From Octopus vulgaris (taxonomy: Eukaryota), in the NCBI GenBank assembly GCA_951406725.2, contig OX597830.1:11780001-11844000 (forward strand): a stretch of DNA of 64,000 bases, written 5' to 3'. Under the pieces are notes generated by a model, which was given only the letters and a program-made list of their open reading frames with translations, was not told the origin of the DNA and ran no database searches. Every line of letters starts with the position of its first letter. Position 1 is the first letter of the stretch. Positions 7,649-59,950 of the stretch are shown piece after piece. The position numbers and the translations under genes are program-made.

Positions 7649-8207
7649 ATGCCAAATATGCCGAAAATAGACAAATCGTCAATAACCATATAATTTATCA
7701 TTATAAGCACGCGTCTCGAACTAAGCCGAGAGAAATTTCCAAAAATTTCCGTTATTATTGTATCGGTCCCAATTTCAGAGATAATTCATAAGAATTTTCT
7801 CCTCGTCAGCGATAAATACGGTAAGAAATAAATGAAATACTTACTTATACCCATGGAAGAAGCAAACACTAAGTCATGTGCACACTTCAGTACCCCAAAT
7901 ATATTCAAAATAGAAATTCTCCAGCACACCTCAAGACACGTGTGATCGGACTGAAAACTCTCACAGAGTGATAGAGTCCGGAAGTGAACACTATTAAATT
8001 TACATTTAATATAGGATAACATTTTTTGAAAAAAAATTCTATCAATGGCCAGCATATTAAAAAATACCTTTAAAGGTTAAATTTATAAACAACTTATAAA
8101 CAAGAGCAAAAGAAAAAAATTCTAATGCCAAATATGCCGAAAATAGACAAATCGTCAATAACCATATAATTTATCACTATAAGCACACATCTCGAACTAA
8201 GCCGACA
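7649..8207 (-). repeat. Hammerhead-bearing repeat (same family as the 28205-28756 fold-back) plus a partial second copy at 8125-8207
   Basis: TGCCAAATATGCCGAAA... shared with 28205. Confidence 0.85.
7761..7814 (-). ncRNA. Hammerhead ribozyme-like motif (cleavage triplet mutated to GAC)
   Basis: UAUCG CUGACGA GGAGAAAAUUC UUAU GAAUUAUCUCU GAAA UUGG GAC CGAUA; perfect 5-bp stem I. Confidence 0.7.
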
Positions 8208-8229
8208 GTCTGTTCGTAAAATGCAGACA

Positions 8230-8446
8230 TGTATACCATAAGATAGTTCTCGGGGAGATTCAGCCTCACATAGAATGTAACAAGGCTGGTCCCTTTGAAT
8301 TACAGCCACAACTCATTTTTACCAGCTGAGTCGACTGCAGCAGGTGAAGCACAGTAGGTTGCTCAAGAACACAGCGCGCCGCAGAGAATGGTACTCATAA
8401 CTTTACGATCGTGGGCCGAATACCCCTAACCACTGTGCTACGCACC
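8230..8446 (-). mobile_element. Diverged CORE-type SINE (family C relative)
   Basis: tRNA-like head and TTCTTGAGCAA motif on the minus strand. Confidence 0.65.
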
Positions 8447-9018
8447 TTTACTGTCTTAACCGTAGAGAAGAGGAATGAAGCGATAGAGAGCGCGATTCGA
8501 TTGTAAGATATTTTATTAGTTAAGCGATATTTCAACAGTACGTCTGTTTTTGTCAAGTTCAAAATAAGAAGTGATACAAATTGAAAATTACAGAACTTTA
8601 AACATAAGGTATGAACGAGAGTAACCAGCGTCCACACGTTGATGGAATGATATCATTAGTTTTTAAGTTACAATTTTATAACAGGCGAAAAGAAAAAGAC
8701 AGAAAAAATCAGAAAAAATAAGACGACAGAAAGTAAGGAAAGAAAAAGAGAGAAAGAAGAATATTTAATCAAACAGTTATGTATAAATTTGATGATATTC
8801 TCCTGTCATCTTATTCATTCCTCCAGAGCGTGATGTTAATAATAAAAACATATTTCTCGTTTTGGGCCTCCGTCAATTCAAATAATAATAAAAAAAAAAA
8901 AAAAAAAAAATAATAATAATAATAATAATAATAATAATAATAATAATAATAATAATAATAATGATAATAATAATAATAATAATAATAATAATAATAATAA
9001 TAATAATAATAATAATAA

Positions 9019-9500
9019 TGGAAGCTATGCCAACACTATGGAATAACAAGAGAAAAAAGATGGTATAGGCACACGCCAGAAAAGGTCATTGAAAATGAGA
9101 AAGCAACCATACTATGGGATATGCCAATACACAGAGATAGAGAAATTAAGGCCAATAGACCGGATATAGTTGTCAGAGACCATCTAAAAGAAATGGAGAA
9201 ACTTTTAAAATATAAAGACCTGGAAATAGAGGTAACTAGAATGTGGAATCTAAAAACAGAAGCAATTCCTATCATAATAAGCGTATTAGGTATGATAAAA
9301 AGATATTCAGACAACTACATAACAAAAACACCAGGACTAACAAGTATACAGAAATTTTCTACTAGGCACCGCACACATCCTACGAAAAGCACTTTCAATA
9401 CAGTAACAATAGGAGCATCACAACAAACCACAGCACAAACCAAAGGGACACAGAGCTGCGTTCGGTAGTGCAGTCAAAGCACGTGTTAGACTACTGAATA
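9019..9500 (+). mobile_element. R4/Dong-like non-LTR retrotransposon 3' end (RLE domain and tail)
   Basis: ILWDMPIHRDREIKANRPDIVV...KYKDLEIEVTRMW...IPIII; flanked by (TAA)n. Confidence 0.88.
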
Positions 9501-9584
9501 AAAATGATAATAATAATAATAATAATAATAATAACAAAAATAATAATAATAACAACAACAGCGACAACGCTGATGATGATAAAA

Positions 9585-56863: not shown

Positions 56864-57035
56864 TTTAGAACAAACAGTAAAAGGTTGTAATTATAGTATT
56901 CGGAATTTCGAATGTCCGAGCGAAGAGCTACGATGCATTCTAGTCGGCTATTAATGGCAACAGACACTATAAAAAAAAAAGCCGTTGAATAAAAGGGAAG
57001 TTACTCTAATAGGTGGAAAAACAAAAGAAAACAAA
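56863..57035 (-). repeat. Left arm of an inverted repeat with a hammerhead-like motif (56893-56951)
   Basis: Reverse complement of 59780-59950. Confidence 0.8.
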
Positions 57036-57106
57036 ACGAAAAGGATTTTTAAAAAGGCACACACAAGCAGGCGCAGGAGTGGCTGTGTGATAAGTAGTTT
57101 ACTTAC

Positions 57107-59154
57107 TGCGTTGTTTTTCGTCGCGGTGGAAGTCACGTCGTACGTGAGAAATTTAACATTTGAAGCACGACTACAGGTAAAGCATTTATTTTGGGGGAGT
57201 TTAGTGAGGTCTGCTGTTTGTATTTAAGTATTTTTTCGAACAGGGATCTCCACTGGGTTCCAGGCATTTGTTTGCCAGTGGTCGTGCAAGAACACTCACT
57301 TCGTAGAGAGAATTGTGCTTATTTTGAGAGGCGTGTCCCTCCGAAAATTTGTTTGGAATTTTCTATGACTGTATTTTTGCCCTTTCAAGTGGATTTTTAC
57401 CATAAAAGATAGGAGTACAGCCAGAGTTGGACGGAATATTATCTGTGCTGTGAAGGACTACCAGTTTGGATTACCAGAGTAGCAGAATTGTGCTGTGTTG
57501 CGTTGCCATTTTGGACTATCTTCCTTCGCTCTTTTTTCTCCTGTCTGTCTTTCTGATCTGTTTTGAGTTACTTTATAGACTTTCATTTGAATATTTTGAT
57601 TTTTGTTTGTGTTTTTTTTAAATTTTTGTTTTGGCTATCAACATAGCAACTGTGAAATCCACTTTGGAGTGGAAAATTGTAGCCCCCAAAGAATAGTTGA
57701 AAAATTATACGGAGAGAATGGTAGTGTTAAGACCCTATTCCAGGGTCCTCGACACCATCAAGGTCTTCTGTCAGGAAGAAATTGAGAAGGAGTTGGCAGA
57801 CTATCTGCCAACTGTTAGGTTTATCCGCAGGGGTGCGAAGCATACAAATGTGTGTACTTTTTGACACCCCTGCGGAAGCTCGTGATTTTGCGAGCATGCT
57901 TTGGAGGGGGAAAAAATTATGTTTCTCCCTACTTATGGCGGTAGAAAGTTGACAAGAGCCTGGGTGTGTGGGCTACCACCCGGTATCGAGGCCGAGTGGA
58001 TAGAAGATACTATCTGTTGGGGCCTGGCTAGCGGCCCTGCCAGGCTCTTAAATGTAAAAATGTTGCCTGCGGTTGATTGGGTCGGGTGAAAAGCAATTTT
58101 GACCCTATGGACCCAATCAGCTGATGATCTGGTTTTACCAGATGTTTAAACAATGGCCGGGTCCAGGTACCCGGTGATGGTTGAGGGACGTCCCTCCAAG
58201 TGTCACCTGTGTCTGGAATCGGGCCATATAAAGAAGAACTGTTGCCGGGAACAGGCTAGGGTCCTGGAACAGTTAATGGGAAAGGTATCCCCTGCTCCCC
58301 CAGTGGAAGAAAAAGTCGAGGAGGAGGTAACCTTCTCAAAAACAAAGGGGAAGAAAGGAAAGAAGGTGGGCAACAATGGCTGCTAACCAATGGATCCTGA
58401 GACGGCGGGGGTGGGGGAGGGACCTCCGGAGATGTCGGAGGAACTCCACCCGTCGTAAAAGGAAAAAAGAAGAGAAAAAAGAAAAACGTGGCATTGCCAG
58501 CGACGGCATGCTTCGAACTCCCTTCGATGGAATGTATGCCACCGGAGGGGGGCGAAGATAACCTCGTCAGTGGGATGTGTACCACTGAGGCCCCTTCCAG
58601 TGAAAGTGGTGAAGAATACGTTTTCTTCTATCTCAGGGGAGGGGCTATTGACAGTTTCGTGGAGAATGATATGGATAGTCGGGTCATGACGGACACGACT
58701 TGTATCGACAGCCCATAGTGGCCTTCGCAGGTGGCTGCTCTGGTGCTGGAAAGAAAGTACTGTGATCTTATAATTAACTCGTGTAAAAACGAGAATTATA
58801 GAATTCTCTTTTGGAGCCCCAGATTGCGGTTGCAGGAATGTCTGCAAGTCGCAAGAAAATTACTCGGGGAAGGATTGTAGAGGTTTATCGCCTCCAATTT
58901 GAGTATAAATCGTTTTATATTTGTAAGGCCATTTTAGTCCAAATATATTGTATTTTAAATTGTAAGAGGGTTAATAACTCTATATGTGTCTTTAAAGAAT
59001 AACGTTATAGAGAAGCAGAGGGTCGGCGGGTGCTTTCTGCCTTCTCCCATCTTTATCATTTTTGTATCATAATCATTCGCCTCATTAATGTTTATGCCCA
59101 GCCCGCAAAGCTACCTTATCTATGTGCTGCCTACATGGCAAATTTAATGCATAA
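57107..59154 (+). mobile_element. Internally deleted L1/Tx1-like element (5' UTR, gag-like ORF1 relic, probable ORF2 start, tail) inside a SINE A
   Basis: VMVEGRPSKCHLCLESGHIKKNC zinc knuckle; RLINVYA APE-like motif; 15-bp TSD at 57092-57106 and 59155-59169. Confidence 0.78.
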
Positions 59155-59505
59155 AAGTAGCTTGCTTACCGGGTTCAGTCCCACTGTATGACACTTTGGG
59201 CAAGTATCTTCTACTATAGCCTCGGGCCGACTAAAGCCTTGTGAGTGGATTTGTAGACGGAAACTGAAAGAAGCCCGTCGTATATATGTATATATGTGTG
59301 TGTGTGTTTGTTCTCCAACATCACTTGACAACCGATGCTAGTGTGTTTACGTCCCCGTTACTTAGCGGTTCGGCAAAAGAGACCGATAGAATAAGTGCTA
59401 GGCTTACAAAGAATAAGTCCTGGGGTCGATGTGCTCGACTAAAGGCGGTACTCCAGCATGGCCGCAGTTAAATGACTGAAACAAGTGAAAGAGTAAAAGA
59501 GTAAA
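59155..59505 (+). mobile_element. Remainder of the split SINE A (head at 57069-57106)
   Basis: Continues the SINE consensus after the TSD. Confidence 0.88.
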
Positions 59506-59779
59506 GTGTAAACATATTCGCACAATACATAGATATAAACCTCCTGCGTTCACAACGTCTACATACGTACACGCTCACCCAAACATGTATACGTACATGC
59601 ACATACACACACACATAAACATACATATATGCGTATCTACGTACATGTACATATATGTTTGTGTGTGTGTGTATGTGCATGTACGTATACATGTTTGTGT
59701 GAGTGTGTACATATGTTGACGTTGTGAACGTAGGCAGTTTATGTCTATGCATTGTGAGAATATGTTTGCGTGTTTTATC

Positions 59780-59950
59780 CTTTCCTTTTTTTCATTTTCC
59801 TTCCTATTAGAGTAACTTCCTTTTTATATAACGGATTTTCATAGCGTCTGTTGCCATTAAGAGCCGACGAGAATGCCTCGTAGCTCTTAGCTTCGACATT
59901 CGAAACTCCGAATCCTATAAAGACGACCTTTTACTGTTTTTTTTCTAAAT
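59780..59950 (+). repeat. Right arm of the inverted repeat with a hammerhead-like motif (59860-59918)
   Basis: CCGACGA GAAUG...CAUUC GAAAC UCCGA AUC CUAU. Confidence 0.8.

Follow-up and report, generated by a model that had tools for sequence, protein, structure and literature searches.

Minimal type I hammerhead ribozymes are a known component of Penelope-like elements (PLEs), retroelements in which pseudo-long terminal repeats (pLTRs) flank an open reading frame (ORF). Passages of Cervera and de la Pena (2014; PMC4209133) describe ribozymes with a short stem I, a palindromic stem III, an extra base between positions 9 and 10.1 and a U3-A8 variant, present in many families per genome, mostly as single truncated copies but also as opposite-strand duals 100-700 bp apart. 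The insertion anatomy of endonuclease-bearing PLEs is likewise described in sections of three reports (PMC3846280; PMC8557442; PMC11167929), which cover 5' truncation, tails of 30-40 nt and pLTRs sufficient for movement in trans, with head-to-head inversion, one-sided tails and asparagine (Asn)-rich inserts between reverse transcriptase (RT) and endonuclease given in the first, insertion bias for (TA)n in the second, and two-strand nicking, two internal start sites and an uncleaved RNA template in the third. Animal non-LTR retrozymes, as characterized in parts of PMC7229834 and bioRxiv 10.64898/2026.07.22.740005, are non-coding units that carry a type I hammerhead, occur both in tandem and as monomers, have a strong predicted circular fold and co-occur with PLEs; they have been proposed to be non-autonomous Penelope derivatives (bioRxiv 10.64898/2026.07.22.740005). 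Here we examine a stretch of 64,000 nt of the Octopus vulgaris genome (the window; GenBank assembly GCA_951406725.2, contig OX597830.1, positions 11,780,001 to 11,844,000, or G000:C17:11780001-11844000 of the 2.8-Gb assembly that we searched), in which an earlier note had recognized about 20 hammerhead motifs from about eight families and attributed them to protein-free ribozyme elements mobilized by PLEs. Most of these motifs are known biology, the ends of Penelope-like elements with minimal hammerheads. We consider it highly probable that type I hammerhead folds in the pLTRs of such retroelements account for the motifs and that two families, A and F, were likely moved in trans.

The window agrees with published PLE ribozymes in its short stem I, palindromic stem III (found in most families, as the earlier note had it), extra base, U3-A8 variant, multiplicity of families and predominance of truncated copies with opposite-strand duals, and with endonuclease-bearing PLEs in its 5' truncation, head-to-head partners, one-sided tails, (TA)n or AT-rich targets and Asn-rich inserts; an uncleaved template and movement in trans would fit as well. 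It departs from PMC4209133 in the very long stem II (55-97 nt) of families C, E and H, and from passages of that paper, whose supplements may hold such variants, in family-wide G3-C8, U4C and A6U cores. Its tails (∼55, 82, and 116 nt) exceed those in the published PLE passages, and several families have microsatellite-rich 3' untranslated regions (UTRs) of 1-2.5 kb unlike the elements described there. Nineteen of the 20 sites in the earlier note are hammerhead homologs, only 5 of the 20 being intact and the remainder mostly decayed. By family alignment the sites form 10 families (A to I and K) rather than about eight, and an eleventh, J, had been missed (core at 44814, minus strand).

In longer copies, eight of the ten families (B, K, C, D, E, G, H, and I) follow RT/GIY-YIG coding sequence on its 3' side, and for this reason most copies in the window are 5'-truncated ends of autonomous elements. 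The order of RT followed by a C-terminal GIY-YIG domain upstream of the pLTR is complete for family E, and its endonuclease end was found for B, K, C, G, H, and I. Upstream of family E lie an RT with the motif YRDD and a GIY-YIG domain; at loci L207 and L211 a 778-aa frame stands between two pLTRs, each with a hammerhead, and L161 has RT, GIY-YIG and an inverted truncated copy that abuts. The anatomy of pLTRs flanking an ORF, an inverted truncated partner and a tail is represented by L207, L211, L199, L161 and the window pairs. Atlas look-alikes of the family E ORF are RT and GIY-YIG clusters, which we treat as leads only, and related frames of ∼900 aa are numerous in the genome, some of them in tandem. 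One young tandem Penelope-like family with intact ∼900-aa frames (L198, G000:C1:119513500-119523400, and L208) has no hammerhead match above the score filter at up to one mismatch, and its ribozyme may be lost or altered.

Within the window the RT/GIY-YIG linkage can be seen directly for families C and G. Family C is a roughly 6-kb element, represented by a long 5'-truncated plus-strand copy (32356..38253, 5' limit approximate) with remnants of RT (32501-33119) and GIY-YIG (34986-35228), a microsatellite-rich 3' UTR with nested insertions and a hammerhead (core 37756) whose stem II is ∼97 nt; L459 and L460 are collinear with window positions 34900 to ∼38100-38260, from endonuclease to hammerhead. 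Family G is a 5'-truncated minus-strand element (38915..40857) with an Asn-rich linker, a GIY-YIG remnant (39892-40253; tblastn E 5e-12) and a decayed core at 39040; its homology to other copies extends to 40387, the remainder being assigned from the reading frame. The CTGATGG that had been read as the core of the 39000/40858 pair is loop II, the true core being the one at 39040 on the minus strand, and the 40858 copy lacks a core. In families B, C, G, H, and I (e.g., L477-L497 and window 35228-37750) the interval from ORF to hammerhead is occupied by a 0.8-2.5-kb 3' UTR in which (CA)n, (TA)n, and (CATA)n abound, so that each new insertion brings along microsatellites of the kind that these families prefer as targets.

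The inverted pairs bear the marks of insertion. Six had been reported, of which five are true head-to-head junctions; the sixth (family I, 56893/59860) has 2.4 kb of unrelated DNA between its arms and may not stem from one event. Three pairs abut directly. The family A pair (28155-28801) comprises a minus-strand left arm (28155..28473, core 28362, 3' end in (TA)n) and a plus-strand right arm (28474..28801, core 28597), both with intact hammerheads; the family D pair (51948-52053) comprises a minus-strand left arm (51866..52000, core 51988) and a plus-strand right arm (52001..52053, core 52013), both intact and minimal; and the family F pair (30378-30634) comprises a minus-strand left arm with a ∼55-nt tail (30321..30489, core 30473, stem II partly deleted) and a plus-strand right arm without a tail (30490..30634, core 30507, with A6U in this copy). 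A second family D pair, at G000:C5:55480116/55480169, has a 53-nt spacing as in the 51988/52013 pair. Once nested insertions are set aside, the family C and G junctions are also head-to-head: the inverted 5'-truncated C partner (30855..32355, minus strand, core 31132), split by an E copy and a B 3' fragment, continues to 32355 past these two insertions and meets the long plus copy, and a 42-nt plus-strand G fragment (40858..40899) without the first core box adjoins the long minus copy. A further inverted structure belongs to family H (40973-41248), in which a minus-strand tail of 116 nt (40973..41088), identical to the tail at L365, precedes a plus-strand pLTR stump of a young element (41089..41248, core 41133, with G12A in this copy).

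The single polarity claimed for these pairs (left minus, right plus) survives as a strong tendency and not as a rule. Among the first 100 matches listed in order of position, close opposite-strand neighbors are divergent in 9 of 9 pairs for family F and 6 of 6 for family D, and over 280 loci we count 86 divergent and 9 convergent partners, a tally in which some places are counted twice and 25 F loci were selected by an inverted query. B and K pairs that converge 3' to 3' across shared (TA)n were seen at L111, L119/L120 and L507/L508. The motifs do lie in or beside microsatellites, as had been stated: 18 of 22 3' ends, placed by eye, are within 15 nt of one, against 17.8% of 1,500 random positions. 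Head-to-head pairs, one-sided tails and (TA)n targets are ordinary, already published Penelope-like insertion anatomy.

From published work in other species we infer that a Penelope-like protein would nick both strands of AT-rich or (TA)n DNA and that reverse transcription would then begin downstream of the hammerhead, where the choice between two internal sites would give a short end or a tail. Synthesis would usually stop early and leave a solo stump; if both strands were primed, the two cDNAs would likely be joined at their truncated 5' ends, yielding a left-minus/right-plus pair with a tail on one side. As copies span the cleavage site, uncleaved RNA must be the template. For the step that makes the inverted arm there is an alternative, self-priming or fold-back on one template as proposed in part of PMC3846280, which would do away with the second primed strand and which the short palindromes and re-copied 5' pieces at many F junctions would suit. 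However, the 3' start sites of the arms differ, the tail being confined to one arm, as expected of two separate priming events; passages of PMC11167929 report both two start sites and two-strand nicking. We regard self-priming as unlikely, though deserving of weight for this one step.

Family A resembles a non-LTR retrozyme in its short non-coding unit, type I hammerhead and tandem copies. The unit is 476 nt, circularly permuted and tandem, with a longest stop-to-stop frame of 88 aa, and is above the 170-400 nt given for retrozymes in PMC7229834 and inside the 51-972 nt of bioRxiv 10.64898/2026.07.22.740005. Its predicted circular fold of −122.6 kcal/mol compares with −90.0 ± 5.8 in 60 shuffles (z = −5.6). 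In 14 of 30 loci (13 places) the sequence wraps around with period 476 and is longer than one unit, as is the 560-nt minus-strand copy in the window (7649..8208, core 7809, stem I broken here), which has 84 nt of terminal redundancy, and in a tandem array at G000:C18:40.83 Mb two units pass our strict descriptor. Family A 3' ends have two preferred points ∼82 nt apart, often at (TA)n. No ORF was found in the 30 loci read, of thousands. The likely template would be circular or multimeric 476-nt RNA, as for a retrozyme. Unlike published retrozymes, family A, known here from DNA, shows Penelope-type ends and inversions directly.

Family F does not fit the retrozyme pattern, there being no tandem or wrap-around copies in 85 loci. 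The element is ∼207 nt long; its 5' end is sharp and precedes the core by ∼25 nt, and its 3' end is either a short site or lies ∼55 nt farther on. In 30 loci picked for a complete 5' end what lies upstream is an inverted arm of the same element, (TA)n or unrelated DNA. Junctions vary from copy to copy, and in two samples of inverted loci a tail was present on both arms in 0 of 14 and 1 of 14. Neither an ORF nor a partner element was found in the 85 loci read, of at least 6,858, and two instances of closely spaced copies on one strand reflect independent insertions or a duplication. One natural monomer that we folded has stems I and II in its minimum-energy structure. Being short, with a fixed 5' end, no ORF found and a high copy number, family F resembles a short interspersed nuclear element (SINE), and was likely copied from linear ∼207-nt RNA with a fixed 5' end. 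On the opposite strand some copies have a possible RNA polymerase III B box.

Families A and F could themselves be truncated ends of autonomous elements whose long copies went unsampled, the F 5' end then being a strong stop for reverse transcription. Family B is a precedent, as it too seemed short before probing farther upstream turned up long copies whose ORF is ∼2 kb away; moreover, only 85 of the F loci were read, and 7 of 30 scored F loci had 5' extents of 40-103 nt, not individually checked. Against this alternative, none of the 30 F loci with complete 5' ends shares upstream sequence beyond its own arm or (TA)n, and family A wraps onto its own 3' end with period 476, which is impossible from a 3-kb parent. 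We judge truncation of A and F to be improbable, and prefer movement in trans by Penelope-like machinery.

The explanation in the earlier note, that all families are protein-free ribozyme mini-elements, is very improbable, even though most copies are 150-300 nt without coding sequence. It is largely refuted by the collinear long copies in which 8 of 10 families extend upstream into RT/GIY-YIG, and by the 5' ends of family D, which spread from 2 to 611 nt as truncation would give. The mini-element description survives for families A and F, neither of which yielded an ORF, and may also hold for some short copies of family B, whose counts fall 12-fold, from 4,769 to 388, between neighboring 20-mers that lie ∼77 nt upstream of the core; this drop suggests either a short self-copying sub-population or a strong stop. 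Slightly less credible again is that the fold-back pairs, F above all, are DNA transposons with terminal inverted repeats resembling miniature inverted-repeat transposable elements. Nearly all of the best 40 matches to the F pair are inverted structures of 260-290 nt, as this hypothesis expects, but the query selects such structures, and junction and arm lengths differ per copy, outer ends differ by the tail and, in a position-ordered set of 27 F loci, about half stand alone. On account of the variable junctions and one-sided tail we reject it in favor of PLE insertion.

That the motifs are hammerheads at all was assessed with a descriptor for a type I fold requiring a stem I no shorter than 4 bp, the box CUGANGA (with a Watson-Crick swap at 3-8 allowed), a stem II no shorter than 3 bp that an extra base may precede, GAAA, stem III and UH, and by dinucleotide shuffles within 500-nt blocks. 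The window holds five strict motifs, from just three families (cores 28362, 31849 and 51988 on the minus strand, 28597 and 52013 on the plus strand), against a shuffle mean of 0.37 and maximum of 2 in 60 shuffles, and the motifs are accordingly real. At one mismatch there are 16 motifs against a mean of 7.25 and maximum of 12 in 20 shuffles; this total is not informative, and decayed sites were for that reason judged by family alignment. The 86 matches at two mismatches were discarded as noise. The three-stem architecture was fitted by column-majority of genomic copies for families A to H, while family I was read by eye from its majority sequence and K from its genomic matches. By majority, families A, C, D, E, G, and H have the CUGANGA, GAAA and NUH boxes in type I order with three stems, and core deviations fall at position 4 in B and I, 3/8 in F and J and 6 in K. 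Stem covariation across copies, which the earlier note had proposed as a check, was found in 12 E-clade copies of related autonomous subfamilies: 91.7% of stem cells are paired, against 37-49% in slid controls, with nine double changes and a covariation score reached by 1 of 500 shuffles. Across families the tertiary 3-8 pair takes three Watson-Crick states, C-G (the commonest), U-A and G-C. The structure thus appears, from sequence comparison, to be under selection between families.

Several observations weigh against the interpretation as hammerhead-bearing PLE ends. Two of the five covariation measures in the E clade were not above shuffles (225/500 and 456/500), the sequences compared are related, which inflates counts, and within families the core is barely more conserved than its flanks where the probe left the core free. 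Stem I of family C has a majority length of only 3 bp, and shrinks to 0-1 bp in the copies of the window. No ORF tested had a Pfam match above cut-off, the best being GIY-YIG at E 0.011, and the Penelope-like label consequently rests on motifs, architecture and Atlas leads; Penelope clade names, including Neptune-like for the young elements of families E and H, are provisional and taken from motifs. In favor of the ORF link, upstream DNA has GIY-YIG matches on the sense strand in 14 of 30 loci for H, 11 of 21 for B, 4 of 25 for K and 1 of 30 for I, but the H and B loci were chosen with upstream probes and their ratios are not genome shares. The ORF link of family D depends on motifs read by eye at L273 and L286, two of the four long D loci translated (L286, in which an N-terminal Penelope-like region is joined to GIY-YIG without the RT core, is possibly an internally deleted derivative), and that of family J on two weak matches (E 3e-4 and 6e-5). 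Family B pairs ran counter to the usual polarity, with 0 divergent and 3 convergent in 30 loci, and the negative results for families A and F come from small samples.

The earlier note had proposed Rfam alongside a descriptor, and here only the descriptor gave a signal: no Rfam hammerhead appeared in two small scans or among the 150 of 304 window rows listed, the top rows being microRNA models that match microsatellites and fold-backs. This absence and the noise of the descriptor at one or two mismatches are what chance matching in AT-rich, hairpin-rich repeat DNA would predict, but the strict excess, the family-level fit, the compensatory changes, those at the tertiary 3-8 pair among them, and the matching place of the motif in the two pLTRs of full elements refute it for families A, D, E, F, H, and J (C being the least secure) and leave it next to no credence.

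The families with the highest copy numbers carry altered cores: A6U in K (98 of the first 100 matches listed), U4C in B (74 of 100 matches listed, counted by hand) and G3-C8 in F, where the first 100 of at least 6,858 matches comprise 97 G-C, 2 G-G, 1 C-C and no C-G. The F motifs at 30444/30500 had been taken for CUGANGA; their core is G3-C8, and no alternative letter was found in the F core at a 5% threshold (contigs, four public runs, four organism labels). Family J, in 27 genomic matches, has 23 U-A, 3 C-G, 1 U-G and no C-A, and in family I position 4 is a C at 27 of 30 loci. U4C is also present in family E copies with open 778-aa frames; A-to-I editing was considered as a possible source of U4C and set aside. 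Passages of Perreault et al. (2011, PMC3088659) on natural core variants describe, as here, covariation to U3-A8, a U4C core, which in a viroid goes with reduced activity, and a change at A6, which gives low activity; G3-C8 is not named in those passages, and is described in sections of PMC11167929 and PMC8495972 as an engineered partial rescue. For family F, self-cleavage of no more than partial activity is predicted. No natural G3-C8 hammerhead was found in the literature searched, which excluded supplements and Lünse et al. 2017, and no report of octopus hammerheads of this sort was among the literature matches listed. From the altered cores we infer that cleavage may be dispensable or disfavored for copying. 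A more speculative reading, tentative and with the balance tilted against it, is that family F could be a SINE-like Penelope parasite with its own internal promoter and an active, selected G3-C8 core, while in the top repeats cleavage would be detuned and the fold would be a handle for the protein.

The remaining hammerhead copies of the window are mostly stumps. On the plus strand are a decayed family B pLTR stump (18930..19075, limits approximate; core CCGACGA at 18981), a second B stump nested in the C 3' UTR (36403..36611, U4C core 36479), a 5'-truncated family C copy (48752..49357, core 49054), a family K pLTR stump (50559..50775, A6U core 50644) and a family I stump (59488..60038, U4C core 59864) with its own short inverted piece at ∼59488-59640. 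On the minus strand are a decayed pLTR stump of family K, which is related to B (21946..22158, A6U core 22067), a solo family E pLTR of a young Penelope-like element (31726..31900) with an intact hammerhead (core 31849, GUC site), a family J minimal hammerhead (44715..44934, U3-A8 core 44814, with G12A in this copy) and a family I pLTR stump (56864..57042, decayed U4C core 56947). Across 30855-38253 the E copy and two B pieces are nested in (TA)n tracts of the older C element. Copies flanked by (AAT)n with a LINE (long interspersed nuclear element)-like 3' end occur at 9019-12700, 33956-34777, 42700-44700, and 61064-61960; CTGACGA and CTGAAGA words in these 3' ends were ruled out as hammerheads, as no GAAA stem lies downstream.

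The window is AT-rich and dense in microsatellites, which swamped the repeat finder. Mapped pieces cover ∼13.6 kb (21% of the window), nested foreign insertions included, and are mostly two long truncated elements; short hammerhead-bearing pieces cover ∼4.2 kb (6.5%), so that the suggestion that such elements make up much of its unclassified repeat DNA was overstated. A first look at candidate copies in the genome gave lower bounds of at least 3,101 for family A, 575 for C, 2,175 for E, 344 for G, 2,562 for H and 752 for I, while exact pattern matches number 6,858 for F, 8,593 for B, 15,930 for K, 109 for D and 27 for J, with no match to the reversed pattern for any of these five. A DNA query with 50560-50775, in which very common words were skipped, returned nothing, and family K was then counted by pattern. 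Hammerhead-like motifs of further families were seen in the flanks of fetched loci (L450 at ∼2850-2930 and L200 at 1735, both minus, and L366 at 3535, plus), and genome-wide hammerhead diversity is accordingly greater than the eleven families of the window.

The link between retrozymes and Penelope-like elements has been argued in print mostly from co-occurrence and homology, and family A adds direct insertion-site evidence that Penelope-type machinery integrates a retrozyme-like unit. Family F may represent a third life style, that of a linear SINE-like rider. If the tentative reading of the altered cores is true, the most successful repeats (K, B, and F) would retain the fold as something for the Penelope protein to grip rather than as a cutting tool. 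One genome holds natural high-copy core variants with C3-G8, U3-A8, G3-C8, U4C, and A6U, some of them on ORF-bearing elements, and this panel makes testable the question of whether hammerhead cleavage is needed for Penelope-like transposition.

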